Source: a virus (taxonomy: Duplodnaviria; Caudoviricetes). Taken from it: 25,049 bases of DNA. Positions 10,478 through 24,316 of this stretch are shown here, piece by piece. Under the pieces are notes generated by a model that had not been told where the DNA came from, ran no database searches, and saw only the letters and a program-made list of their open reading frames with translations. Positions within the stretch are counted from its first letter, which is position 1, and the number at the start of each line of letters is the position of its first letter. The position numbers and the translations under genes were made by a program. The stretch covers positions 1 to 25,049 of IMG/VR virus record IMGVR_UViG_3300017914_000656. The stretch is one strand, 5' to 3'.

Positions 10478-12445
10478 ATGGCGACCCAATACGAAAAGTT
10501 AGTTCTCTTAATCGAAGATGTCGGAGTCAAAGAAGCTGGCAAAGCATTTGATGAAGCTCGAAAGAAGATTAAGGGAGCTGGCGACGCGGCAGAGACTGCT
10601 GGCAAGAAAGCCAAAGGTGCTGGCACAGCCTTCAAAGGATTCAGAGGCTCTACTTCAGCCCTAACAAATACCACGGGTCAGTTATCCGTACAGTTGCAGG
10701 ACGTTGGGGTTCAGCTTCAACAAGGAACTGATTACGTTCGAATATTTGCACAGCAGGGGCCGCAAATTGCGTCGATTTTTGGCCCAACTGGTGCTGTCTA
10801 TGGTGCATTGATTGCGTTTAGTGCGTTAATTGCGGGGCCATTCATACAAAACCTTCTCGCGGGCAATAAAGCATTAGACGATGCTCGTAAGTTTATTCAA
10901 GAATACTCAAAGAACTTTGATGAGCTAACAGATGCTCAGAAAGCCGCGAAAATACAGCAAGTAACTCAACAGATAGAGATTCTAAAGTCAGCGCAAAAAG
11001 ATGCATCAGAGGAAGCTGATGCTCTCGGTTACACAATAGGCCGAATGACTAAACAAGTCGAAGATAGCGCAATAGCTCAGAAACTGATTGGCAGTCAGCT
11101 TGAAGATAATAGGGAAGAATACATAGAAACGACTGCGGCTGTAGACACTCTCAATCAAAAAATAAAAGAAAAAGAAGATTTGCTAGACATTCTTACTGGC
11201 GCTGTAGAAGAACAAACTGATGAAACAAAAGCGCAGAAAAAAGCGCTTGATTCTTTGGTTGCATCAATTACGGAAGAGGTAGCAGTTTTAGGTCTTAGTA
11301 ATGCTCAAAGGAAAGTTAGAGAGGTTGCTTTAGCTGGAGGAAATTTAGCGCTACAAGACGCGATACGAACTCAGTACGAATATATTGAATCCTTCTTGGA
11401 AACTAAAAGAGAACAGAAGAAAGCGAAGGAAGCGGCAGAGCAATTTACAGCTAGGGTAACGGAACAAGCAGATAAAATTGGCCTTACTCGGTCTGAAGTT
11501 TTGCGTATGCAAGCCGCACAGCAGGAACTCACCAAAGAGCAAAAACTAGCTGTTGAAGTAGCTATCCAATTATTAGAGAAAGAAGAAAAAAGAGTTAAGG
11601 CTCTGAAACATCAAAAGACAGCTACTGATGAGTTGATTGAGGCTGGGAGGGAGTTCAGAGCATTAGTAGATCAAGAGCAAAAAGATATCGAAGCTCGGGA
11701 GAAGAATCGAAAAAAAGCGGCACAGGATCGAATAGATGATGAAAACGACGCTCTGGCCGATATTGAGAGAGCGCTCGCAGAAGAAGACAGGATGCGAGCT
11801 GAAAGAGCGGAGCGCGAGAAACAATACAATCAGATGATGGCTGATGACGCAATCAGGCTTCAAAACCAAGAAGACAAAGAAAGACTAAGAATAGCAAGTC
11901 AAGCCACTGACGGGTTGCTTGCACTTGAAGATAAGCTCCTAAAAGGTAAAACAGAAAAGCAAAAGCTAGGCTTTAGAACTTTAGTCAATTTCTCAAATGC
12001 CACACGCAGACAAAACGCAATTCAAATTATCTCAGATTCTAAGGTGGCTGGTGCGGCGGCTCAAAAAGCACTCGCTGGGATACCGATTGTTGGCCCAATT
12101 CTAGGTGCGGCGGCAATGGCATCTATTATCGCTGGAGGCTACACGCTTGCGGCTCAGTCATTAGCAGGTAGAGCTTTAGGCGGGCAGGTGCGGCAGGGCG
12201 AGTCATACGTCGTTGGTGAGCGCGGCCCAGAGGTTCTGACAATGGGTTCCGGTAGTGGAAGAATTATTCCTAATGAACAGCTCAGAGGGCAACAGCCAGC
12301 AGTTAGCAAAGTTGCTAACGTCACCTTCAATATTACTGCGAATGACACCGCAGGATTTGATAGACTGATTCAAAGCCGAAGAGGTCAAATTGTCTCGATT
12401 ATCAATCAGGCTTTGAATGAAAGAGGTAGGCCAGCAATCGTATGA
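10478..12445 (+). CDS. Tape measure protein
   Basis: 655 aa, helical, A/E/K/Q-rich; QLQDVGVQLQQG..FAQQGPQI near the N-terminus; RALGGQV...VGERGPE near the C-terminus. At roughly 0.15 nm per residue this implies a tail near 100 nm (inference). Confidence 0.93.
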   Translation: MATQYEKLVLLIEDVGVKEAGKAFDEARKKIKGAGDAAETAGKKAKGAGTAFKGFRGSTSALTNTTGQLSVQLQDVGVQLQQGTDYVRIFAQQGPQIASIFGPTGAVYGALIAFSALIAGPFIQNLLAGNKALDDARKFIQEYSKNFDELTDAQKAAKIQQVTQQIEILKSAQKDASEEADALGYTIGRMTKQVEDSAIAQKLIGSQLEDNREEYIETTAAVDTLNQKIKEKEDLLDILTGAVEEQTDETKAQKKALDSLVASITEEVAVLGLSNAQRKVREVALAGGNLALQDAIRTQYEYIESFLETKREQKKAKEAAEQFTARVTEQADKIGLTRSEVLRMQAAQQELTKEQKLAVEVAIQLLEKEEKRVKALKHQKTATDELIEAGREFRALVDQEQKDIEAREKNRKKAAQDRIDDENDALADIERALAEEDRMRAERAEREKQYNQMMADDAIRLQNQEDKERLRIASQATDGLLALEDKLLKGKTEKQKLGFRTLVNFSNATRRQNAIQIISDSKVAGAAAQKALAGIPIVGPILGAAAMASIIAGGYTLAAQSLAGRALGGQVRQGESYVVGERGPEVLTMGSGSGRIIPNEQLRGQQPAVSKVANVTFNITANDTAGFDRLIQSRRGQIVSIINQALNERGRPAIV

Positions 12446-13577: not shown

Positions 13578-16267
13578 TGTCGCTTTTCGGTGAAATTCAA
13601 GAGTTCTTCAACGACCCTATAGGTTACACCAGCGAGGCTGTCGACACGATTGGAAGTAATGTCACCAGAATTATAGGCGAAGGTGTCGCTTGGCTCACTG
13701 GTCTTGATGATCTTCCAGACCCGAACGCAGAGAGAAACGTCCTCTTAAACAAAGAATCAAATGTCGCGCCAATACCTGTTGTTTATGGCAGAAGAAAAAT
13801 AGGCGGCACAAGAGTAGCTGTTGGACTGTCGAGCGATAAAAAGGATTTATACATTGTTTTGGCGATGTGCGAAGGAGAAATTCAGGAAATTGAGTCTATC
13901 TACATCAACGACATCATTAGCACAGACTCAAGGTTCTCCGGAAAGGTAACGATAAACCAATATCTCGGGACTGACTCACAAACAGCCGACTCAATGTTGA
14001 CCACAGCTTTTCCGACGTTGTGGACTTCAAATCATAGACTGCGCGGAATCGCTTATTTAGCGTGTAAGTTTACCTATGACCCCGAAGTTTTCAGGTCAGT
14101 TCCTGAGATCACAGCAATTGTTAAGGGTCGTAAAGTTTATGATCCTAGAGACACAACTACGGCCTACAGCGATAACCCAGCATTATGCTTGTTGGATTAT
14201 TTAACGAACTCTCGTTACGGCAAGGGGTTAGCTTTATCAGACATCGATACGACAGCGTTTGGGAGTGCCGCGACTGATTGCGAGGATTTAGTTACAAAGT
14301 ACACTGGCGCACCAGCAGATACAGAGATATTCACTTGTAACGCAGTCTTACCTACTGACAAGACAATCTTTGATAATGTCAAAGTTTTGCTTTCTGGCAT
14401 GAGAGGGTTACTCCCATACCAAAATGGCAAATATGGACTGAGGATCGAGCAAGACGAAGCGTCTGTAATGTCTTTTGATACAGACAATATGGTCGGCGGC
14501 GTATCAATTCAGTTTCTCGGCAAACAAAGAAGATATAATAAAGTCACAGCTCGTTTCGTGAATCCAGACGCAAACTGGCAAGCAGATACGGTTGTTTGGC
14601 CTCCTGCTGGATCGACAGAAGAAAGCACTTTTGCAACAGAAGATGATGGCTTTGAGTTATCTACTGAAATCAATCTTCCAACTTGCACTGACTTCTATGC
14701 GGCAAGGGATTTGGCAAGACTTGTTTGTCTCGCCTCGAGAAACAACAATTATGCAGTTTCATTTTCAGCAACGTCGGATGCGTTGAAAGTTGAGGCCGGA
14801 GATATCATTGATATCACTTATGACACGCCAAATTGGTCTAGTCAGAAGTTCAGGGTCAACGAGATTCAGGTTAACGCTGATGGTACGATAGGAATTTCAG
14901 CTCAGAAGCATGACGCGACTATTTATCCTTGGGATACATCAACTGAGTTCACTGATCTAGGGGATTTTGGAGAGATCACTCAATACTCCACTGTTGATGC
15001 GCCAACAAACTTGTCAGCGTCTAGTTCAATTGTTACGCAAGAATCTGGCGAACAGTTCATTAAGGTTGTTTTGTCTTGGACTGCCAGCAGTCAATACAAT
15101 TTGCTCAACTACGAGGTGCAATGGAAGAAGTCGTCGGATACCTCATATCAATCTGCGTTTACGACAGATACCTCACTTGAAGGCGGTGGCATTGAGGCAA
15201 ACACTTCATACAACGTCAGGGTCAAAGCTATTACGACCGATGGCGGAGAGTCGTCCTATCTGACAGGAACATTCAGTTCTGCAACTGGCATGACAACCAG
15301 CTTGAGAGAAGGTGATGCCGCCTCTGATGTCAATTCAAACAGCACAACGGTCAACGGAACAAAGATCACAGCGAACACAATATCTGCTGATCGCATTCAG
15401 TCCAACACAACAAAGACAGCTAATAATACTGAGTTTGGCTTAGGAACTGGCACTACGTTTGAAGGCATTCAGTCTGGAGGTCAGTTCATCGCCGACTCAT
15501 CTAGTAAGTTCGGCCTTGTTGTGGCAAACGAAAACACATCTGGTCATGCGTTAGCTGTCGGCACTAGGAGTACCACGGCAGATAAATGGGCGATCCTCGC
15601 GGGTAGTGGGGCTAATTCATCTTTTACCACATTCTCTCATGCTGTCGGTATTTGCGACGGCGCGATGGCTGGCAACTTTATTGATGTTGGTAGCTCAGAA
15701 ATTGAGTTGGCAGTAGGCGGTTATGCTTACTATATCCAATCAGGCTCTGGAGGGCCATTTACAGGAGCGCACGATGGCCTGTTCTTGAAAACAAGTGTCA
15801 AGCCTAGCGCTGGCGATATTCTTGTAGATCAATCGGTCGTAGGGCGCAACGGAGTATCTGACACGATTACAGAAGTTGCTACATCAACTAGCACAAATCA
15901 AAAAAATGTCATTGGCGTTTACGCTGGCCAATCTGCATCAAATCATAGCCCAACAGCCTTAACTGAAAACGTAGCGTCTCAAGGCGAGCGCCCAGATAGA
16001 CAGCTTAAATCAGAACACTCAAATGTTTTCGATACTTATGACGCGGTCATCGTAAATTCACTTGGCGAAGGTCAAATCAATGTATGCAACGAAGGCGGGA
16101 ATATCGAAGCAGGTGACTTGATCGTCACTAGCTCAATGACTGGTAAAGGCATGAAGCAGTCAGATGATATTATTAGGAATTATACGGTCGCAAAGGCTCG
16201 TGAAGCAGTGACATTCAGCTCTGCTAGCGATGTTCAGCAAATTGCCTGTATTTACCTTTGCGGATGA
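13577..16267 (+). CDS. Tail tip / central fibre protein (gpJ-like) with Fn3 domain and C-terminal chaperone-like domain
   Basis: PIPVVYG, CEGEI, HRLRGIAY, VKGRKVYDPR and NPALCLLDYL; Fn3 pattern APTNLS..LSW..YEVQW..YNVRVKA; C-terminal FTGAHD...GEGQINV...GDLIVTS. Confidence 0.88.
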   Translation: MSLFGEIQEFFNDPIGYTSEAVDTIGSNVTRIIGEGVAWLTGLDDLPDPNAERNVLLNKESNVAPIPVVYGRRKIGGTRVAVGLSSDKKDLYIVLAMCEGEIQEIESIYINDIISTDSRFSGKVTINQYLGTDSQTADSMLTTAFPTLWTSNHRLRGIAYLACKFTYDPEVFRSVPEITAIVKGRKVYDPRDTTTAYSDNPALCLLDYLTNSRYGKGLALSDIDTTAFGSAATDCEDLVTKYTGAPADTEIFTCNAVLPTDKTIFDNVKVLLSGMRGLLPYQNGKYGLRIEQDEASVMSFDTDNMVGGVSIQFLGKQRRYNKVTARFVNPDANWQADTVVWPPAGSTEESTFATEDDGFELSTEINLPTCTDFYAARDLARLVCLASRNNNYAVSFSATSDALKVEAGDIIDITYDTPNWSSQKFRVNEIQVNADGTIGISAQKHDATIYPWDTSTEFTDLGDFGEITQYSTVDAPTNLSASSSIVTQESGEQFIKVVLSWTASSQYNLLNYEVQWKKSSDTSYQSAFTTDTSLEGGGIEANTSYNVRVKAITTDGGESSYLTGTFSSATGMTTSLREGDAASDVNSNSTTVNGTKITANTISADRIQSNTTKTANNTEFGLGTGTTFEGIQSGGQFIADSSSKFGLVVANENTSGHALAVGTRSTTADKWAILAGSGANSSFTTFSHAVGICDGAMAGNFIDVGSSEIELAVGGYAYYIQSGSGGPFTGAHDGLFLKTSVKPSAGDILVDQSVVGRNGVSDTITEVATSTSTNQKNVIGVYAGQSASNHSPTALTENVASQGERPDRQLKSEHSNVFDTYDAVIVNSLGEGQINVCNEGGNIEAGDLIVTSSMTGKGMKQSDDIIRNYTVAKAREAVTFSSASDVQQIACIYLCG

Positions 16268-16273
16268 TATAAT
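16265..16273 (+). promoter_or_regulatory. Extended -10 promoter candidate TGATATAAT
   Basis: Perfect TGnTATAAT built on the tip gene stop codon, 40 nt before the next ATG. Confidence 0.55.
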
Positions 16274-16312
16274 GTTAAAATGTAAGCAGGACTGACCTAG
16301 GAGAGCTTTAAC

Positions 16313-16735
16313 ATGGCATCACTTGTTTATAATAGCTGTATTCGTGACACTGTTACGGGACAGATCGACTTTGATACTGATACTTTTTACATGATGCTGG
16401 TAACCTCATCATACACCCCAGATCAAGATACCCATTTGGATCGCGCTGACGTAACTAACGAAGTTACAGGTACGAACTACACTTCTGCTGGTCAGGCTGT
16501 GACTGTGACTGTTGGTTCTGTTGATACAGCCAATGATCGCGTGGACATTAGCTTTGCTGATGTTACATGGTCAAGCTCAACAATTACTGCGGCGGCGGCT
16601 GTTGTATACAAGTACACAGGAACTGCGGCAGATGATTTGCTGGTTGCGTATTTGGACTTTGGCGGAGACGTATCGTCTACATCTGGTGACTTTACTGTAA
16701 GTACAACGACACCACTACGTTTCGCAAACTCCTAA
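16313..16735 (+). CDS. Small acidic beta-rich virion protein (candidate fibre/filament subunit)
   Basis: SD AGGAG. IDFDTDTF..MLV..SYTP..NEV.GT.YT..G and LVAYLDFGGD.SST.GDFT resemble a widespread minor virion family. Confidence 0.65.
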   Translation: MASLVYNSCIRDTVTGQIDFDTDTFYMMLVTSSYTPDQDTHLDRADVTNEVTGTNYTSAGQAVTVTVGSVDTANDRVDISFADVTWSSSTITAAAAVVYKYTGTAADDLLVAYLDFGGDVSSTSGDFTVSTTTPLRFANS

Positions 16736-16752
16736 GTTAAAAAGGTGACAGC

Positions 16753-17628
16753 ATGGCTTCTATCACGACGAGGGCTGGCAAAGGGTCGGCTCTTACTCAT
16801 ACAGAGTTAGACGATAACTTTACCAATCTCAATACTGAGCTTGGTCAAAAACTCGTCGCATCTTCAAACCTATCGGATGTAGGTAGTGCTGACACCGCAT
16901 TAAATAATCTAGCTGGTAACGGTGACGTAGACTTTGGGTCATACAAAATTTTGTATTCCAATGTGTACTCTTCGGAAGGTGATTTGCCTTCAGCATCAAC
17001 GTATCACGGTATGTTTGCTCATGTTCATGGAACTGGCGCGGGCTATTTTGCTCACGGCGGGAACTGGATAAAACTGGTTAACTACGACACATCTGGCAAC
17101 GTCACGATCTCTGACGACTTAACAGTTTCTGGCGACTTAACAGTTTCTGGAACGACTACCACAGTAAACTCAACGACACTCGATGTCGCAGATTTGAATA
17201 TCACGATTGCAGATGGCGCGGCAAATGCGGCGGCGGCAGACGGTGCTGGTATTACTGTTGACGGGGCAAGCGCAACAATTATCTATGACTCGACAAATGA
17301 CGAGTGGCAGTTCAATAAGCCCATTCAGGGAACTTACCAAGACCTTCATCCAGAAGTCAGCACGATCACTACTGCGATTGATATGAACAAGCCGTTCATG
17401 ACGGTCACTCTATCTGCGGCTACGACGTTCACTGCTACAAATCTAGCAGAAGGCAGTGTATCAATCCTGAAGTTCAAACCCGCGAGCTACACACCAACAT
17501 GGCCTTCATCAATCAACTGGGCAGATGCTACTGAGCCAACATGGGGCGACTACAATACTTGGGTGATCTCTTTGGTATGCGACTCAGGCACTGACATCTT
17601 AGCTTCAGCAACAGGACACACAGTGTAA
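16753..17628 (+). CDS. Short fibre protein with N-terminal TRxGKG anchor and C-terminal adaptor domain
   Basis: MASITTRAGKGSALTHTELDDNFTNL; His-rich knuckle LPSASTYHGMFAHVH; DLTVSG beta repeats; C-terminal TWPSSINW..EPTW. Confidence 0.75.
   Translation: MASITTRAGKGSALTHTELDDNFTNLNTELGQKLVASSNLSDVGSADTALNNLAGNGDVDFGSYKILYSNVYSSEGDLPSASTYHGMFAHVHGTGAGYFAHGGNWIKLVNYDTSGNVTISDDLTVSGDLTVSGTTTTVNSTTLDVADLNITIADGAANAAAADGAGITVDGASATIIYDSTNDEWQFNKPIQGTYQDLHPEVSTITTAIDMNKPFMTVTLSAATTFTATNLAEGSVSILKFKPASYTPTWPSSINWADATEPTWGDYNTWVISLVCDSGTDILASATGHTV
17115..17150. repeat. Perfect 18-bp tandem duplication CGACTTAACAGTTTCTGG (DLTVSG x2)
   Basis: 17115-17132 is identical to 17133-17150. Confidence 0.95.
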
Positions 17629-19208
17629 TGGTTTTGCCAGTTGGGTTTACAGTAGCAAGAATTGCTTCCTCGGCAGGAGGAAGTTATTGGGTAGCTGAAG
17701 ATACTGGACTTGCCGCAAGTATGACGAACTACGGGTTTGCTGTTAAGAGTAATCCATCAGCAGACACGGTTTATGTAGTCATTTCTAGGGCAAGTGGTCA
17801 AGCAGGTGAAGGGGGGATGCTATATTCCTTGGACATCAATGACCCTACAACTGAAAACTATGCACTGAGGTTTCGAGGTTACGCTAGCGGTACTAATGAT
17901 TTTTATTTAGGCGGAACAAATCAAGGCGGATCGAATTACAATGGTGCTTCTTATGGCACGCAAAATTGCTTTTTCGTCAACGACACTTATCTGTATTTCT
18001 TAGGCACATATGAAACAAGTAGTTCAACAGATACCGCGCACCCTGTCCTTGTAATAGCCAATGCCAGTAATGGCTCTATTAACTCAGTTATAAATTTTGA
18101 CGACGAAGCAACGCACGACACTTATCCTAGAGGTGGGTTAGGCGGAATGATGGGTCATAACAATGGCTCGCTTTGGTTGCATCCTTACAGGTCAAAATCA
18201 GATGGCTCCAGCACGAAGGCAGATTACGGGTACGCAAAAGTTACTGGAACTACATACAATTTGTTTGAGTCAGTCACTGCGACTGTTACTGCCAATTTGA
18301 CTCATCAAATGAGCGTACCATGTCATATGTCAGCAAATGGCAATCACGGATTACAAATTAGCTCATGGAACGTCTACACAAACTCTAATGTCTTAAGCAA
18401 TGGGTTAAACTGGGCTACTTTTGTTGAAAACAATTCAAGGTCTTTTGCTTACCTCAACACTCAGGGAGATGCTCAAGGAAATATTAATAGGCGAGGTATC
18501 GCTACTTGTATAAATAATAGTAAGGATGCTTATTTAGCGCATGGGACTCGCTTACAGTTATTTAAGTTTTCGGACGGAGATTACACTGTTACTAGATCAT
18601 CATCTTACGATGACTATCAATTTGGGTCTTACGCAAAGAATTTCACTATCAGCAACTCTGGGACAATAGCACTTTGCTCCATGCAACTAGACCCGAGCGA
18701 AGCATATCTTTATTTGGCTTATGCTTGTGAGAACGATAATTCAATAATTATTTTTAAGAGAGATGCTTCAGACTTATCAGCAGTAAGCTCTATGAGGATC
18801 ACTCATTCTGACTCGGGATATGTGCCTTTTGATGACGGCAGTTACGCGAATCCGAAGAATCTGACTATGGAAGTTGTAGACGATGACACCTTGTTATTAG
18901 GGGTAGGGGCTTTCGCAAAGATGTTTGTAATTAAGATTCCATCTGATTTAAGCACAACCGGAACATACGGTAATTTCACTTTTGCGTCAGGCGATGGTAT
19001 TTATCTCAATTCTGGAGGAAGTGTATTGACCGCGCCAGTAGCTCCAAACAGTTTATCTTATCCGCGATGGCATTGGTCGTCATCAATGACACAAGGTACG
19101 AGTAACGGATCAGGCATAAGTGGTAGCAATAAGGCAAGCACTGGTAGTTACCAGTTTTCTACTTCAGTGGATTACTTTGACTTCAATCCATCTAAAACTG
19201 ACGTTTAA
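17628..19208 (+). CDS. Putative receptor-binding / adhesin protein, possibly beta-propeller
   Basis: 526 aa rich in S/G/N/Y; coupled to the fibre gene by TAATG overlap; AT-richer DNA than the core genes. Confidence 0.55.
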   Translation: MVLPVGFTVARIASSAGGSYWVAEDTGLAASMTNYGFAVKSNPSADTVYVVISRASGQAGEGGMLYSLDINDPTTENYALRFRGYASGTNDFYLGGTNQGGSNYNGASYGTQNCFFVNDTYLYFLGTYETSSSTDTAHPVLVIANASNGSINSVINFDDEATHDTYPRGGLGGMMGHNNGSLWLHPYRSKSDGSSTKADYGYAKVTGTTYNLFESVTATVTANLTHQMSVPCHMSANGNHGLQISSWNVYTNSNVLSNGLNWATFVENNSRSFAYLNTQGDAQGNINRRGIATCINNSKDAYLAHGTRLQLFKFSDGDYTVTRSSSYDDYQFGSYAKNFTISNSGTIALCSMQLDPSEAYLYLAYACENDNSIIIFKRDASDLSAVSSMRITHSDSGYVPFDDGSYANPKNLTMEVVDDDTLLLGVGAFAKMFVIKIPSDLSTTGTYGNFTFASGDGIYLNSGGSVLTAPVAPNSLSYPRWHWSSSMTQGTSNGSGISGSNKASTGSYQFSTSVDYFDFNPSKTDV

Positions 19209-19243
19209 AAACAACCTCTTGATATAGGGATTAAGGATTTGAT

Positions 19244-19345
19244 ATGACAACAATCGTAACTCGATCAGGAAAGGGCGAAGAACTCACATTTGCTGAGATG
19301 GATTCCAGCCTCACAAAAGGGATTGAAAATGGCGTTAGTCGTTAA
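19244..19345 (+). pseudogene. 33-codon relic of a second TRxGKG-anchor fibre gene
   Basis: SD TAAGGA (19232-19237). MTTIVTRSGKGEELTFAEMDSSLTKGIENGVSR* matches the N-terminus of 16753-17628, then stops inside the next gene. Confidence 0.7.
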
Positions 19346-22046
19346 GGATCGAGTCAAAGAAACTACAACGACCACAGGAACAGGTACATATACTGTTGCT
19401 GGTGCGGTCGCTGGCTTTCAATCGTTTGCCGATGCACTGACAGATGCTGACACCACTTGGTACGGTTGTGAGAACGGCACTGATTGGGAAGTGGGCTTAG
19501 GCACTTGGGACGAAACCGCAGGAACTATTGCTCGCACACAAATCTATGCATCTTCAAACTCAGGAAATGCTGTGGATTGGAGCGCTGGCGATAAGAATAT
19601 CTTTGTCACTCTACCTGCTTCGCGCCTTTCAACGACTGTGGTTTATGACACTATCGATGACCTACCGCTCACTGGCGATGTGCTAGAAGGCGACCAAGCC
19701 TACGTCGCTGGAAATAACAGACTGTATCTGTACAACGGTACTGGCTGGTACAACATTGCTCTGGTCAACACCACGCCAACTCTATCAGGAAATCTTGCGT
19801 CTTATACTTTGGCTACTGACGGCACGGCTACTGTTGTGACAATGACGGGAACTGACGCAGAAGGTATTCCGCTTACATGGTCAGCGACCACATCAGGCGA
19901 TACAGACGCGGCTACAGTCACCAATGTCGATAACGTCTTTACGATTACCCCGTCAACAGATTCGGCTGACTCAGGAACAATCACAGTCACATTCAAAGCA
20001 TCTGACGGCGTAAATATCGGCACAGCAAGTTCTGAGTTTGAGCTTACGTTTATTAACATAAACTGGAAGTTGTATGCCCAGTTTAGTCTCGGCACTAGCG
20101 GAACTGACGCACAAGATGAATACGAGTTTGTTGATCGTTCATCAAATGCCCACACCATTACAGCCACTGGCTCAACAGATTTAAGAGTTGGCTCTGTCAG
20201 CCCATTCAGGGGCGCAGGAGGATATTCAATATGGATTCCTTCTGGCGAGTATATGAGAAGCGACTTTGACGGAAACTCAAATTACTCTGCGATAGGGACA
20301 AGCGAAGACTTCTGTATCGAGATGTTCGTGTTGATGGACGGCACGTCAGTCAGTAACTACAGGAATCTATTTGACTTTAATAACTATCTGGCTGTGCGGT
20401 TTGCTAGCAACCAGTTTGAGGCGGCAAAAACAGGGACAACAAGTTTTGTAAATCTAACCACAAAGCCTGATATTAAATTCGGAGAATGGATTCATATCGC
20501 CATTTGCCGGAAGAGCGGGACAACAAAATGGCTGATCGATGGTACAGAGGTTTACTCTAAGTCTAGCGATACGCATGGCTACGACTTTTGGCAGATGTAC
20601 CTGCATAAAGGCAACACAGATAACGAAGTAGATGTTCCGACGTACTACTCAAACATCCGTGTCGTCAAAGGTGATTCTGTTTACTTCGACTCTTACACCA
20701 GACCGACGGCAGGACTGACAGAAATTACGGGAACGGCGGCTCTTTGGAATAGCTTCAATTACGATGATGCTGTTGAAGGGTATAGTGCGTGGGGATCAAA
20801 CGTCTCAGATTATGGTCACAGAATCGTATCTGTTAGCCCTTTTAACGAAAGCGAGGCTTTGAACGATAACGATATTGGATCAGCATCTTTTGAGAATAAT
20901 GACAGTTATTTGACTGTTGACCTTAGCTCTACGCTTTCGGACGGAATAGGAAGTGATGATGACTTTACGTTTGAGTTCTGGCTTAAAAATGACCTCAAAA
21001 CATGGAACAGTTACGCTGGAGAGGTGTTCTTTTTCGGGACAGGAAACAGCAACAGAGTTGTAGCCTTGCGTTGCTCCAACCGGAACCAATTCCTTCTATA
21101 TTCATGGAATAACGACATTACTATTACCATCCCAACTTCGGCAGAAGGCCCAACATATTGGGGATGGGTTAAATCAGGATGGAATCATATTGCCATCGTC
21201 AAGAACGGAAACAATCGTGATCTCTATTGGAATGGTGTTCGAGCGGGCGGGGATACAAACTGGGGTTCACTAGCCATCACATCCGCAGACCTTGCAACGT
21301 GCAAGATTGGTTCGGGGCAGAATGGCACAATGAACGGTGAGCTAGCTGATTTTGCATTCAGCATGACGGCTAAATATACGTCAGACTTCACTCCGCCAAC
21401 AGAGCCGATTGGCGCGTCAGGAACTACATTGTATTTACCATTTGACAGCGCGGGCATCTTTGATAAGACAGGGACGACTGAAGTAATCTCAGCGGGTAAC
21501 GCGCAGACTGATACGACGGAAACCAAATACGCCACAACGTCTCTTCAGACTGCGGCGGCAACTGACTACATCACGACGCAAGAAGTTATCCCGACTGGTG
21601 CTGATGACTTAACAATCGAAGGTTGGTTCAATTTCGATTCTGCGAGCGGTAACGTGTATATCGCAAGCCATAATACGACTTACGCTGGAAACAATAATAT
21701 GTTTCAGCTTGGCTTGGGTAGCGGGATTCCGGCATGGTGGATTGGAGGCTCCTCAAATAAAGCATCTTCTGGCGCGTTGAGTGCAGATACTTGGTATCAC
21801 ATCGCATGGGTCAAAGAAGGAACCTCATACGAAATATTTGTCGACGGTACGTCAGTACACACCTTTACAAACAGCAACGCAATCAAGTCATACCAATGGC
21901 GCATCGGGAATGCATATGACGGAGCGTCTCAAGGATTCACGGGACACATTGAGAACTTTCAGATTCTTAACGGGATTGCCAAGTACACAGAGAACTTCAC
22001 TGCGCCCACTGTAGAGCAAGGTATTACTACACAGGTAACTAGCTAA
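19329..22046 (+). CDS. Large fibre/adhesin with an Ig-like domain and three LamG/concanavalin-A-like domains (905 aa)
   Basis: Likely start ATG 19329 after AAGGGA (MALVVKDRVKETTTTTGTG). Three LamG-type repeats: FCIEMF..WIHIAICR, FTFEFW..WNHIAIVK, LTIEGW..WYHIAWVK. Confidence 0.8.
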   Translation: MALVVKDRVKETTTTTGTGTYTVAGAVAGFQSFADALTDADTTWYGCENGTDWEVGLGTWDETAGTIARTQIYASSNSGNAVDWSAGDKNIFVTLPASRLSTTVVYDTIDDLPLTGDVLEGDQAYVAGNNRLYLYNGTGWYNIALVNTTPTLSGNLASYTLATDGTATVVTMTGTDAEGIPLTWSATTSGDTDAATVTNVDNVFTITPSTDSADSGTITVTFKASDGVNIGTASSEFELTFININWKLYAQFSLGTSGTDAQDEYEFVDRSSNAHTITATGSTDLRVGSVSPFRGAGGYSIWIPSGEYMRSDFDGNSNYSAIGTSEDFCIEMFVLMDGTSVSNYRNLFDFNNYLAVRFASNQFEAAKTGTTSFVNLTTKPDIKFGEWIHIAICRKSGTTKWLIDGTEVYSKSSDTHGYDFWQMYLHKGNTDNEVDVPTYYSNIRVVKGDSVYFDSYTRPTAGLTEITGTAALWNSFNYDDAVEGYSAWGSNVSDYGHRIVSVSPFNESEALNDNDIGSASFENNDSYLTVDLSSTLSDGIGSDDDFTFEFWLKNDLKTWNSYAGEVFFFGTGNSNRVVALRCSNRNQFLLYSWNNDITITIPTSAEGPTYWGWVKSGWNHIAIVKNGNNRDLYWNGVRAGGDTNWGSLAITSADLATCKIGSGQNGTMNGELADFAFSMTAKYTSDFTPPTEPIGASGTTLYLPFDSAGIFDKTGTTEVISAGNAQTDTTETKYATTSLQTAAATDYITTQEVIPTGADDLTIEGWFNFDSASGNVYIASHNTTYAGNNNMFQLGLGSGIPAWWIGGSSNKASSGALSADTWYHIAWVKEGTSYEIFVDGTSVHTFTNSNAIKSYQWRIGNAYDGASQGFTGHIENFQILNGIAKYTENFTAPTVEQGITTQVTS

Positions 22047-24040
22047 TGAGCTTCGGTGGTGAACTATTTGGCGCACCACTAGGCGCACCTGAACAGCAAT
22101 CTGTCGATGCGATTGCGTATGCTCAGGGGCCGATACTTTATGTTGCTGACGATTTTGTAGAGGATGGGTATGTAACTGAGCCAATTGATGTCACAGTTTC
22201 TGCCCCTGCTGTTTCGGCGTTTCAAGTAGTCGCAGGAAATGCATCTGTCTCCTCGAACACGATCAACGTAAGCGCACCAGAGGTCACGATCACTATTTCG
22301 CAAATTATTGTCGAAGTAGACTTCCCCCAAATTACGATCACCGACCCAATAGTAACTACAGATACTGTCATCAATGCAGTCGCATACCCACAAGGCATCG
22401 TCCTGTATGTCGCAGATGATTTCGTTGAAGACGGTTATGTCACAGAGCCTATCGACGTAACCATCACAGTACCTCAAGTGACTACAACGACTTCTGTTGA
22501 CGCATCAGCTCAAGCGGCGATGGCAACAGTTTCGCTGTCTGCGGCAGAAGCCAGCGCGACTGGCGCGGCTACTGCGACCTTTGGCGCGTTACTTGTATCT
22601 GCGACTGCGCCGAGCGCGACCGCAACAGGTACAGCGACAGCATCTGTATCTGGCGGAACAATCAACATTAGTTCGCCTGAGATATCTGCTCAAGGTGTAG
22701 CAAGCTCCACAGTCTCTCCATCATTTAACATCAATGTAAGTTCTCCAAACGCATCAGCAACTGGTGGCGGTACTGGTTCTGCGACGATCCCAGAGATCAT
22801 AATTACTAAACCTTCGGTCTATGAGTACGCGACCGAGTTTCCGAATACTATTCCGGCAGTTCAAATCAGTGCGCCTGAGCCAACGCCATCTGCTGACTCA
22901 GCAACAGATGCGGCGGTCGGTACTATTACTGTCAACTCTCCAGACGCAACGGTCTCTGTCGTCAACACTATCGACGTAAGTTCAAACACGATAAATGTCA
23001 CATCTCCTGCTGTCACCGCATCTGGCGGTACTGGTGCAACAGCGGCGACCCAAGGTGCTATCGAATACGTTGTTGATGATTATGTTGAAGATGGTTATGT
23101 AGTCGAGTTCCAGCTTGTAAGTGTCTACTCACCACAAGGCGAGGCTTCGATTGTTGAGAGTGTTTCTACATCGGCAGATGTCGGCACGATTAACATCTCT
23201 TCGCCAGCAGCCACAGTCACTGCGGGCGTGACACATAACGAAGACTATCAGTCAGTCACAATTAGTAGCCCAGAAGCTACACTGTCAGCAGAAGTTAATA
23301 TCAGTGTTTCTGCACCTACGATCACGATCTCTGCGCCAAGTGTGTTCGAGGAAGTAACAGAGTTCCCTGTAACTATTCCAGAGATCACTGTCTCTGCGCC
23401 ACTTGCTAGTGTCAACGGCATAGCAACGATTGATGTAGACTTCCCATCGGTCACAGTCTCAGCGCCAGTAGTATCAGCGACTGGTACAGCTAATACGCAA
23501 GTTAGCGCACCGACAGTCCAAGTTCAGCCTCCGCAAGTCTTCGAAACTGTACGAGAGTTCCCTAGAACTTTGCCAGCAGTTCAAGTATCAGCACCACAGG
23601 CCACTGGGACTGGTATTGCGAACATCAGCGTAGACAACGCATCCGTTACGATAACGTCTCCGTCCGTCTTTGCAGATACTGGTGGCGATGCCTTTGCGAG
23701 TGTTGACGTAACTGTTGTCGTAAGCAGTCCAGAAGTTGAAGTAACCAATAGCTCTGTTCCATCGATCACCGACACGCCTTCAGTAGCGGTGACTGCGCCT
23801 GTAGTAACCGCAACAGGAATTCAGTTCTCGAACGGCCTAGCAGAGGTAAGTTTCGGAACTATAACGGTTTCTCCAATACTTGCAGGGGCTTCTGTATTTG
23901 TTACTGATGCAGAAAGAACTATAATTGTACAAGCTGAAGATCGAGTGGTATCGGTACAGTCCGACGATGCGACAGTTGTTGACGCGCAGGATCGAGAGAT
24001 CACTGTGAAATCAGAAAATAGAACTATTGTGGTGACTTAA
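22046..24040 (+). CDS. Acidic V/T/S/A/P-rich repeat protein (about 24 repeats of ~22 aa), candidate fibre ruler/scaffold
   Basis: Recurring (T/S)(I/V)x(I/V)(S/T)xP; only 2 Lys in 664 aa; three YVxDDxVEDGYV inserts and three VxExxxEFP units. Confidence 0.75.
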   Translation: MSFGGELFGAPLGAPEQQSVDAIAYAQGPILYVADDFVEDGYVTEPIDVTVSAPAVSAFQVVAGNASVSSNTINVSAPEVTITISQIIVEVDFPQITITDPIVTTDTVINAVAYPQGIVLYVADDFVEDGYVTEPIDVTITVPQVTTTTSVDASAQAAMATVSLSAAEASATGAATATFGALLVSATAPSATATGTATASVSGGTINISSPEISAQGVASSTVSPSFNINVSSPNASATGGGTGSATIPEIIITKPSVYEYATEFPNTIPAVQISAPEPTPSADSATDAAVGTITVNSPDATVSVVNTIDVSSNTINVTSPAVTASGGTGATAATQGAIEYVVDDYVEDGYVVEFQLVSVYSPQGEASIVESVSTSADVGTINISSPAATVTAGVTHNEDYQSVTISSPEATLSAEVNISVSAPTITISAPSVFEEVTEFPVTIPEITVSAPLASVNGIATIDVDFPSVTVSAPVVSATGTANTQVSAPTVQVQPPQVFETVREFPRTLPAVQVSAPQATGTGIANISVDNASVTITSPSVFADTGGDAFASVDVTVVVSSPEVEVTNSSVPSITDTPSVAVTAPVVTATGIQFSNGLAEVSFGTITVSPILAGASVFVTDAERTIIVQAEDRVVSVQSDDATVVDAQDREITVKSENRTIVVT

Positions 24041-24316
24041 ATGGCTTATACAACTTTTGAAAAAAGTCCGGCTTCTGTATTGGATTATTCATTCGATTGG
24101 TCAGATTGGCTAGAGGCGGGTCAAACTGTTGCGACAAGCTCGTGGACTGCTGATACCGGATTAACCATCGATTCAGACACGAATACGACAACCAAAACGA
24201 CAGCTTTTGTATCTGGCGGAACTGAAGGCAACAGTTACTTTGTTTCGAATACCATGACTACAAATGACGGACTGACAGTAAAGCGCAGTTTTTTGATTAA
24301 AGTAGTGTTTAGGTAA
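24041..24316 (+). CDS. Small Ig-like virion protein, candidate fibre adaptor
   Basis: KSPASVLDYSFDWSDWL and SGGTEG..Y match the KxPxxxLDYxxDW phage family (from memory). Confidence 0.65.
   Translation: MAYTTFEKSPASVLDYSFDWSDWLEAGQTVATSSWTADTGLTIDSDTNTTTKTTAFVSGGTEGNSYFVSNTMTTNDGLTVKRSFLIKVVFR

Follow-up and report, generated by a model that had tools for sequence, protein, structure and literature searches.

The genes at 16313..24316 of the window (the whole 25,049-nucleotide stretch of viral DNA analysed here) likely encode an accessory, chain-like fibre of the virion of an uncultured phage. In the reading that we favour, with a probability of about 0.72, a 664-aa repeat protein (the rope) would carry dimers of a 140-aa protein (the bead), would be anchored to a 91-aa protein of the Gp77 family, and would present a cap motif and YV loops by which other fibres are attached as branches. 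We hold the rope-and-bead core with high confidence and the anchoring of the rope to Gp77 with good confidence, and we lean slightly towards the cap and YV sockets. The core is itself likely a known design, with the branching motifs as the new part.

All ORFs of the block were located where the earlier note had placed them (Table 1), and its statement that the tail is complete by 16267 holds: a siphovirus head, neck and tail set was found, of which the last gene encodes a J-like central fibre. The note had also given the block its own promoter candidate. A sigma-70 consensus scan listed no plus-strand site before 16313, and the sites in the scan were not in excess over shuffled sequences (13 found against 15.5 expected); what stands is an extended -10 element, TGnTATAAT at 16265, which is the sole such site in the window, together with an overlapping TGnTA(A/C)AAT kept in 3/3 relatives that share the same upstream gene. 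We treat it as a plausible promoter candidate only.

Table 1. Positions of the features of the fibre block in the window
Feature	Position	Strand	Description	Match or basis
Candidate promoter	16265..16281	+	Extended -10, weak; two overlapping TGn-TAnAAT sites	
140-aa bead subunit	16313..16735	+	Remote Gp80-type; predicted dimer	phrog_644
291-aa fibre	16753..17628	+	N-terminal TRxGKG..LT..E.D.NF.NLN motif, start MASITTRAGKG	phrog_9729 tail fibre, E 3e-17
526-aa variable protein	17628..19208	+	Likely beta-propeller tip adhesin of 291-aa fibre	
33-aa ORF	19244..19345	+	Truncated second TRxGKG gene	
905-aa adhesin	19329-22046	+	MALVVKDRVKE N-terminal domain, cadherin-like stretch, three LamG stretches	
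664-aa rope	22046-24040	+	24 repeats, three YV inserts, N-terminal cap motif, C-terminal anchor motifs	
Cap motif	22046..22087	+	Rope N-terminus, FGGELFGAPLG	Sequence
YV loop 1	22109..22177	+	Candidate socket	
YV loop 2	22376..22444	+	Candidate socket	
YV loop 3	23045..23101	+	Candidate socket	
Rope C-terminal anchor	23909..24037	+	RxIxVxxExR at residues 624 and 650	
91-aa Gp77-type fibre adaptor	24041..24316	+	Collar subunit	PF23148, 8jou_D

The bead, the rope and the Gp77 adaptor

The 140-aa product had been described as a beta protein, and its AlphaFold model (pLDDT 94) has a helix and a beta body besides a short strand at the N-terminus, the topology given for the Bas63 whiskers (PMC12609058). 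The best fold match in the PDB by Foldseek was the tail wing arm gp31 of mycobacteriophage Bxb1 (PDB 9D93; probability 1.00, TM 0.56/0.72, E 0.015), which was also matched by the bead profile in the whole PDB (E 0.0011) and is the nearest solved relative by fold and sequence. No 8jou chain was among the Foldseek matches listed for the bead, and its PDB matches to uL23 and antibody chains were dismissed as chance or compositional similarity.

Relationship to gp80 of Ralstonia podophage GP4 was found at a greater distance. Direct sequence comparison gave no match, the PF23140 (Gp80) HMM gave none on the window bead at E up to 1, and shallow profiles either failed or reached E values of 0.001-0.003, and only deep profiles passed. 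Profile-profile comparison by hhalign gave an alignment of 121 columns between the bead and the Gp80 class (probability 87%, E 4.3e-6). A Gp80-class HMM scored 18.2 bits on the window bead, where reversed controls reached 7.1 at most. PF23140 is the closest named Atlas family (0.85, a lead only), and its HMM is passed by the second bead of the relative L004 and by gp72 of Caulobacter phage phiCbK. We regard the bead as a remote homologue of gp80, which has an N-terminal helix and an incomplete beta-sandwich, in a divergent class outside PF23140. The KPP25 counterparts of A1002 gp40/gp41 gave nothing convincing against the bead profile (E 0.002 at best, from a test with four sequences). Among the top 150 representatives of bead homologues, 27 are of double length (255-315 aa) and contain two bead domains in every case (27/27); these can be read as natural fused dimers.

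The rope had been called strictly periodic. Its repeats are real: the autocorrelation of identity has maxima at lags of 22 (z 4.4) and 65 (z 5.6) against 200 shuffles, and a repeat matrix recovers 24 units against a mean of 0.5 (maximum 2) in 30 shuffles, a partly circular result from a matrix built from 22 of the rope's own repeats. The spacing, however, varies from 20 to 24 aa, and three YV inserts of approximately 20 aa are present. The earlier note would have abandoned its proposal had the protein folded confidently alone; modelled by itself, the rope gave no confident fold (pLDDT 29), which is weak evidence because the alignment holds four sequences. In its tandem units of ~21-24 aa and, more weakly, in giving no confident fold alone, the protein resembles a GP4-type rope. 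A tblastn search of the rope against cultured phages gave no match. Many ropes are fused to lectin-like domains. A tail tape measure is a helical protein of the tail-tube lumen whose gene follows the tail chaperones; the rope is V/A/T/S/P-rich with no such match, and the true tape measure gene lies at 10478-12445 in the window. From the earlier proposal of a second tape measure, the ruler idea fits the solved architecture, but the rope would be external and not inside a tube.

The 91-aa product, previously termed adaptor-like, is a small Ig-like fibre adaptor of the Pfam family Gp77 (PF23148, the GP4 fibre-tail adaptor; E 4.6e-27, 94.8 bits against a cut-off of 27) and matches GP4 chain PDB 8jou_D (E 8e-4). 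A rope-like gene adjoins Gp77 in seven of the eight Gp77 lineages inspected, and a bead gene is present in 13 of 20 Gp77 loci. Conversely, Gp77 was found in 0/26 bead-seeded loci of at least 12 kb, and the anchor gene is therefore not obligatory in the bead family.

Following the solved relatives, the rope would run extended through the grooves of bead dimers formed via the N-terminal helix and first residues, a rope strand would complete the incomplete beta-sandwich of the bead, and the C-terminal RxIxVxxExR strands would anchor to a predicted Gp77 collar sitting at the neck. The earlier note had each repeat binding one 140-aa unit; the repeated subunit stands, but since beads are dimers on the rope in solved relatives, a dimer per repeat is likelier than a monomer. 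The chain would then hold 24 dimers and measure ~65 nm at the mean pitch of the fibre of Pseudomonas podophage A1002 (300 Å per 11 dimers; PMC13730344), or up to ~175 nm when fully stretched.

Rope motifs and their partner genes

Fibres with two types of N-terminal motif had been reported for the block, and both genes are present, although the second TRxGKG gene is merely a 33-aa remnant. Relatives carry a fibre cassette of ~3 kb at this site, and the 33-aa ORF is the scar of the deletion that removed the cassette; contigs of two studies bridge the deletion junction. A frameshift linking it to the 905-aa gene (length counted from the ATG of MALVVKDRVKE) was discounted, since both genes are intact in relatives and lie ~3 kb apart there. 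The MALVVKD domain had no PDB match, and its homology to the N-termini of GP4 gp75/gp76 is unsupported (E 0.3-0.4). In relatives, other proteins of 210 and 466 aa that share its N-terminal start stand in place of the 526-aa protein; Atlas leads for it had features <0.9 and TM 0.61 to low-confidence models, and it probably forms a beta-propeller adhesin at the tip of the 291-aa fibre. The rope gene is flanked by lectin-type (LamG) and hypervariable genes, and these are exchanged between relatives.

We infer that the 291-aa fibre is a trimeric side branch bearing the 526-aa variable protein at its tip, and that the 905-aa adhesin is the distal cap. The cap motif FGGELFGAPLG, a variant of MFGxxxFxxxPF shorter by one residue, would hold the 905-aa LamG adhesin by the adhesin's N-terminal domain at the distal end of the rope, and each of the three YV loops would bind the TRxGKG start of a 291-aa fibre. 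Both motifs have three aromatics about five apart, which would suit one peptide wrapping a threefold trimer. Together these parts would form a branched appendage, long and flexible, that searches for hosts and has its tips swapped by recombination.

Co-occurrence was counted in 258 loci, in 90 loci after clustering (dereplicated) and in 49 clusters at stricter clustering. The TRxGKG and MALVVKD fibre N-termini were the best 80 of 332 and the best 80 of 549 viral-contig matches, respectively, and motif patterns were composed after positives had been seen; the window's own cap escapes the cap pattern, and one of the three window loops is found by the strict YV pattern. Contig truncation accounts for only part of the loci lacking a motif.

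New here is that each rope motif travels with its own proposed partner gene. YV loops occurred in 30/84 loci with TRxGKG fibres and 0/174 without (9/31 and 0/59 after clustering to 90 loci), the cap in 33/110 loci with MALVVKD and 9/148 without (10/31 and 0/59), and the RxIxVxxExR anchor in 25/36 loci with Gp77 and 1/222 without (10/15 and 1/75), while all six non-cognate motif-partner pairings were not significant in the 90 loci (p 0.058 to 1). A crude rope detector was positive in 59 of 112 bead loci and in six of 23 without a bead (p 0.02). The three motif-partner guesses of the earlier note were thus each borne out at the level of co-occurrence: the cap with the LamG adhesin, the YV inserts with TRxGKG fibres, and the C-terminal repeats with the 91-aa protein. 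The bead-seeded loci devoid of Gp77 count against the proposed anchoring.

The same counts also bear on a plain rope-and-bead fibre without branches, in which the 291-aa and 905-aa fibres would be attached to the baseplate or the neck, and the motifs would accompany them through common descent or have some other use. The motifs are missing from most TRxGKG and MALVVKD loci (YV not seen in 54/84 TRxGKG loci, or 22/31 after clustering; cap not seen in 77/110 MALVVKD loci), and therefore these fibres may also dock elsewhere; YV motifs were also found on non-rope proteins (L119, L152). Significance drops under stricter clustering (YV p 0.023, cap p 0.031; shared ancestry not fully removed), and the available parts of the sources describe no rope branches for GP4, A1002 or Bas63 (PMC13730344, PMC12609058). 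On the other hand, YV never occurred without TRxGKG in either set of loci, the pairings are partner-specific, and the relatives L002 and L004, which keep more fibre genes, have at least four YV loops. We consider an unbranched fibre unlikely.

Related fibres and the phiCbK head filament

The combination of repeat ruler, repeated subunit and anchor put forward earlier for the branched fibre matches the solved fibre I of GP4, the chain-like fibre of A1002 and the collar-whisker of Bas63. Fibre I of GP4 (PDB 8JOU) consists of gp80 dimers, a separate rope protein and the gp77 fibre-tail adaptor, and bead, rope and Gp77 are likewise all present in the window as separate genes. The gene order in GP4 and UAM5 is bead, 325-aa repeat protein with an anchor-like motif, fibre and Gp77; the GP4 candidate rope shares the ~22-aa repeats and has a C-terminal RxLxVxxDxR-like motif. 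Unlike podophage GP4, the window phage is a siphovirus with a bead outside PF23140, its rope has 24 repeats against five reported GP4 dimers, and the repeat consensus differs (TIxVxxPxA vs GxAxIxLDAxG). The GP4 candidate rope has about ten 22-aa units for its five dimers, which speaks against taking one dimer per repeat for granted. Neither YV loops nor TRxGKG and MALVVKD fibres were found in the GP4 region examined.

In A1002 (PMC13730344), dimers are bound in tandem by beta-augmentation with ~21-24 rope residues per dimer, and the rope is fused to a nozzle part and has its own Ig-like domain at the end; the window differs in that its rope is free, its beads are of one class and its anchor is Gp77. 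In A1002 a single rope can take two classes of bead, as it does in the window relative L004, which hints at a possible general code of repeat class to bead class. Bas63/Sf14 resembles the window in being a long-tailed phage with an Ig-like neck collar and beads on a rope; its rope is fused to the collar with two dimers only, and the available part of the paper describes no adhesin genes on it (PMC12609058). Bxb1 gp31 is a siphovirus accessory part that links to an adhesin-like 'brush', and differs in its 106 aa and six chains per tail tip; the Bxb1 region fetched held no long repeat rope and no Gp77.

An anchoring role at the head-tail interface is discussed for Bas63 (PMC12609058), and receptor binding by beads is speculation in the available parts of the A1002 and Bas63 papers (PMC13730344, PMC12609058). 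The beaded chain might accordingly brace head to tail, as proposed for the Bas63 whiskers, or serve as decoration, and not be an adhesive organ. This appears improbable, as 24 repeats are far above the two Bas63 dimers, the LamG and hypervariable genes beside the rope are exchanged among relatives, and lectin-like domains are fused to many ropes. Alternating V/I/T/S repeats can form solenoids and the rope has weak PDB matches to an LRR protein, but it is very improbable that the 664-aa protein self-folds as a beta-solenoid or trimeric fibre with the 140-aa protein an unrelated low-copy tail accessory, given that the rope alone gives no confident fold, the LRR matches were rejected as compositional, the bead and Gp77 are homologous to a solved rope complex, and the linkage recurs.

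Components of the proposed branched rope-and-bead fibre have relatives in phiCbK, where gp75 is 63% identical to the window bead, gp72 belongs to Pfam Gp80, and gp76 carries the window's repeat class over ~860 residues plus a LamG-type domain. The 2012 genome paper held gp76 to be the likely head filament, but it was undetected and its conformation unknown (PMC3556154). PhiCbK differs in that these genes lie in the head gene cluster and the rope is fused to glycine-rich and lectin domains; the 30-kb region fetched contained no Gp77. Also new here, these bead and repeat relatives point to a possible make-up of the phiCbK head filament.

We tentatively propose, at somewhat less than even odds, that the rope acts as a programmable scaffold whose code lies in short motifs. 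The 22-aa repeats would set the number of bead dimers, RxIxVxxExR would plug into the Gp77 collar, and the cap and the YV loop, both aromatic peptides of pseudo-threefold character, would each take hold of the N-termini of one trimeric fibre class, to build a branched adhesive tree with swappable tips. In the same proposal, this system (gp75 and gp72 beads, ~37 gp76 repeats) would also form the head filament of ~200 nm with which phiCbK holds on to the Caulobacter flagellum. The rope-and-bead core is unsurprising in itself, having been solved in several phages. The prediction for phiCbK, a head filament made of a chain of gp75/gp72 dimers on gp76 repeats, can be tested in a cultured model phage. 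Should the motif pairings reflect real binding sites, two widespread fibre N-termini would gain docking partners, and each rope could be read as the wiring diagram of a branched receptor-binding tree.

Composition and variation of the block behind the tail genes

The window is occupied by a long-tailed phage's structural operon, with genes for terminase and portal, head and neck, tail tube, tape measure, distal tail, hub and J-like central fibre, and the genes that the earlier note had listed after the tail were confirmed; the promoter ahead of them is a weak candidate. A 1.2-kb stretch of the window was present in runs of study P1, labelled seawater metagenome and possibly including the window's own source, and of study P2, labelled viral metagenome.

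Coordinates of features in the window and in fetched relative loci (L-numbers; L004, close relative; L081, phiCbK)
Locus	Start	End	Feature
Window	10478	12445	Tape measure
Window	14900	16267	C-terminal third of J-like fibre, which ends here
Window	16313	16735	140-aa bead
Window	16753	17628	291-aa TRxGKG fibre
Window	17628	19208	526-aa variable protein
Window	19244	19345	33-aa ORF
Window	19329	22046	905-aa MALVVKD LamG adhesin
Window	22046	24040	664-aa rope
Window	24041	24316	91-aa Gp77
Window	24321	24515	64-aa protein
L004	2923	3738	Two bead classes in tandem
L004	6026	9027	TRxGKG stub and following genes
L004	11680	13737	Rope
L006	10442	10843	Third bead class
L108	9714	10157	Third bead class
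L081	11933	25343	Genes 72-78
L100	2413	11805	Rope-adhesin fusions

The 664-aa protein, termed here the rope, had been called strictly periodic; it does contain 24 repeats of the consensus h-x-TI-x-V-x-x-P-x-A, but their spacing ranges over 20-24 aa and the array is broken up by three inserts of ~20 aa with YVxDD(F/Y)VEDGYV (YV loops). Two RxIxVxxExR anchor motifs (residues 624 and 650) close its C-terminus. The YV loops follow the pattern Y-x4-Y/F-x4-Y, and aromatic residues five apart also occur in the caps, the N-terminal motifs, of other ropes; judged from sequence, the cap or YV peptide may be wrapped round a trimer. Phage fibres are generally trimers, and the window's fibres were assumed to be trimeric on that ground.

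Of two claimed TRxGKG fibres the first is whole, whereas the second is reduced to a 33-aa ORF, a deletion scar. Its DNA tracks the whole gene of L002 and L004 to ~19318 and then passes into the region where the 905-aa gene starts; compared with L002, L003 and L004, ~3 kb with four fibre-related genes is missing, and the L004 cassette at the corresponding place encodes 110-, 195-, 470- and 152-aa proteins. Because the junction is bridged by contigs of both P2 (19244-19484, 5 differences) and P1 (19274-19577, 0 differences), it is a deletion and not an assembly error. Upstream of 19244 a P2 contig carries other sequence, and L002 and L004 have other genes in place of the 526-aa one; tip genes are variable among relatives. 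Another swapped region is the C-terminal third of the J-like fibre, unlike that of L002 with both ends conserved. L004 may branch at a second level: behind a 66-aa TRxGKG stub come genes for a 110-aa protein and a MAYIGKAP fibre, then a variable tip gene, then a Phage_tail_APC chaperone. The 64-aa protein behind the block is likely holin-like and the first of the lysis genes; it has a hydrophobic helix at the C-terminus and matches XhlA below threshold.

Bead, Gp77 and their rope-bearing relatives

Pfam places the 91-aa protein in Gp77, which in podophage GP4 is the fibre-tail adaptor. The bead is a member of a very large family without a name (2553 matches among 2592 candidates; 12,302 clusters at 50% identity). 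A Pfam HMM search of the window protein gave no membership of PF23140, the family of the GP4 bead Gp80; a deep bead profile gave a 121-column alignment to the Gp80 class (87%, E 4.3e-6). In the reverse direction, 35 of 129 bead-family members scored above 10 bits with the Gp80-class HMM, versus 0 of 127 reversed controls. The bead model was confident (pLDDT 94), its nearest fold being the Bxb1 tail wing arm gp31, which connects to the wing brush (PMC12646305). All 27 double-length matches in the top 150 contain two bead domains, as expected if the bead unit is a dimer; these proteins (P0135-P0266, 255-315 aa) are natural tandem fusions. A third, A1002 gp40-like class was seen in L006, adjoining a window-class bead, and in L108.

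The core of the block is an already known design, and the window very probably encodes such a rope with beads. The GP4 rope has a gene of its own and carries five gp80 dimers, whereas the A1002 rope, ~300 Å long and made up of residues 243-468 and two further short segments, takes part in an augmented beta-sheet with every one of eleven dimers of two proteins (PMC13730344). The Bas63 collar rope is wrapped by whisker dimers 'as beads on a string' and completes their incomplete sandwiches; the GP4 rope is reported to interlock with an Ig-like collar (PMC12609058). Between gp80 and the GP4 fibre genes we found a repeat protein of 325 aa that bears an anchor-like motif; this putative GP4 rope had no sequence match in the PDB.

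Repeat proteins with a period of ~22 often directly follow the bead gene, 13 of 20 Gp77 loci include a bead gene, and a rope-like gene adjoins Gp77 in 7 of 8 lineages inspected. Gordonia phage Vasanti combines bead, Gp77 and a rope with an anchor-like motif at its N-terminus; ropes elsewhere end in other tails. Gp77 was found in 0 of 26 bead-seeded loci of at least 12 kb, which counts against strict bead-Gp77 linkage; the L004 contig holds Gp77 beyond the fetched flank (L188). L004 carries two beads, one PF23140 and one window-class, and a rope with apparently two repeat types, which recalls the A1002 dimers of two proteins on one rope. The first part of the L004 rope has TIxVxxP repeats and the last part GP4-like GxAxIxxxSxxSA repeats; a code pairing bead class with repeat class is possible. 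A single phage (L100) has several rope-adhesin fusions, two Gp77 copies and, as far as seen, one bead gene.

Pairing of rope motifs with candidate partners

Loci of the best 80 of 332 TRxGKG starts and the best 80 of 549 MALVVKD domains were combined with the window and with the loci collected for the bead and for Gp77, giving 258 loci after exclusion of eight annotated records. YV occurred in 30/84 loci with TRxGKG versus 0/174 without, the cap MFGxxxFxxxPF in 33/110 with MALVVKD versus 9/148 without, and the anchor in 25/36 with Gp77 versus 1/222 without; these patterns were composed after positives had been seen, and the window's cap is too short to match the cap pattern. When each of 90 clusters was represented by a single locus, the counts were 9/31 versus 0/59, 10/31 versus 0/59 and 10/15 versus 1/75, respectively, and none of six non-cognate pairings was significant. 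At 49 clusters they were 4/20 versus 0/29 (p 0.023), 3/11 versus 1/38 (p 0.031) and 8/11 versus 1/38. The majority of fibre loci lack the paired motif, and YV is present on non-rope proteins as well. Anchoring of the rope to Gp77 is probable, and a role of cap and YV loops as sockets is slightly more likely than not.

The phiCbK head filament and a proposed assembly

The bead's nearest cultured relatives lie in Caulobacter phages (39 of 97 records); phiCbK gp75 is 63% identical (E 2e-38), and the bead-related gene sits in the head cluster. phiCbK gp72 is a PF23140 protein (E 1.7e-16), and the window repeat matrix gave 9 matches on gp76 versus 0.1 in shuffles. The repeat tract of gp76 spans about residues 1710-2570 and has, as a rough estimate, ~37 units. 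Gill et al. considered gp76 the best candidate for the flexible, ~200-nm head filament of phiCbK; gp76, gp72 and gp75 were absent among the eight virion proteins that they detected, with loss in purification suggested (PMC3556154). This non-detection speaks against the filament reading or is at best neutral. From stacked to stretched pitch, 37 units would span ~100-270 nm, which brackets the observed length. Our searches, with subscription journals mostly outside their coverage, found neither a later account of this filament nor literature on branch sockets on ropes.

In phiCbK the two bead genes, gp72 (PF23140) and gp75 (window class), flank gp76. A GE(I/L)xxN/DxxDxxL-like stretch is common to gp77, gp78 and the C-terminal part of gp76, where it could build a trimeric base of mixed composition. 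The last residues of gp74 are IDGGTF; motifs of this type have a docking role.

The known design and the motif-partner co-occurrence support in part the branched filament first suggested for this block. Most likely, a Gp77 collar, placed at the neck by analogy with GP4 and Bas63, would grip the C-terminus of the rope. The rope would be stiffened and metered by bead dimers and capped at its far end by the LamG adhesin, and three of its loops would bear TRxGKG fibres as branches with variable, propeller-like tips. We put the probability of this whole picture at about 0.7, with an unbranched variant counted separately.
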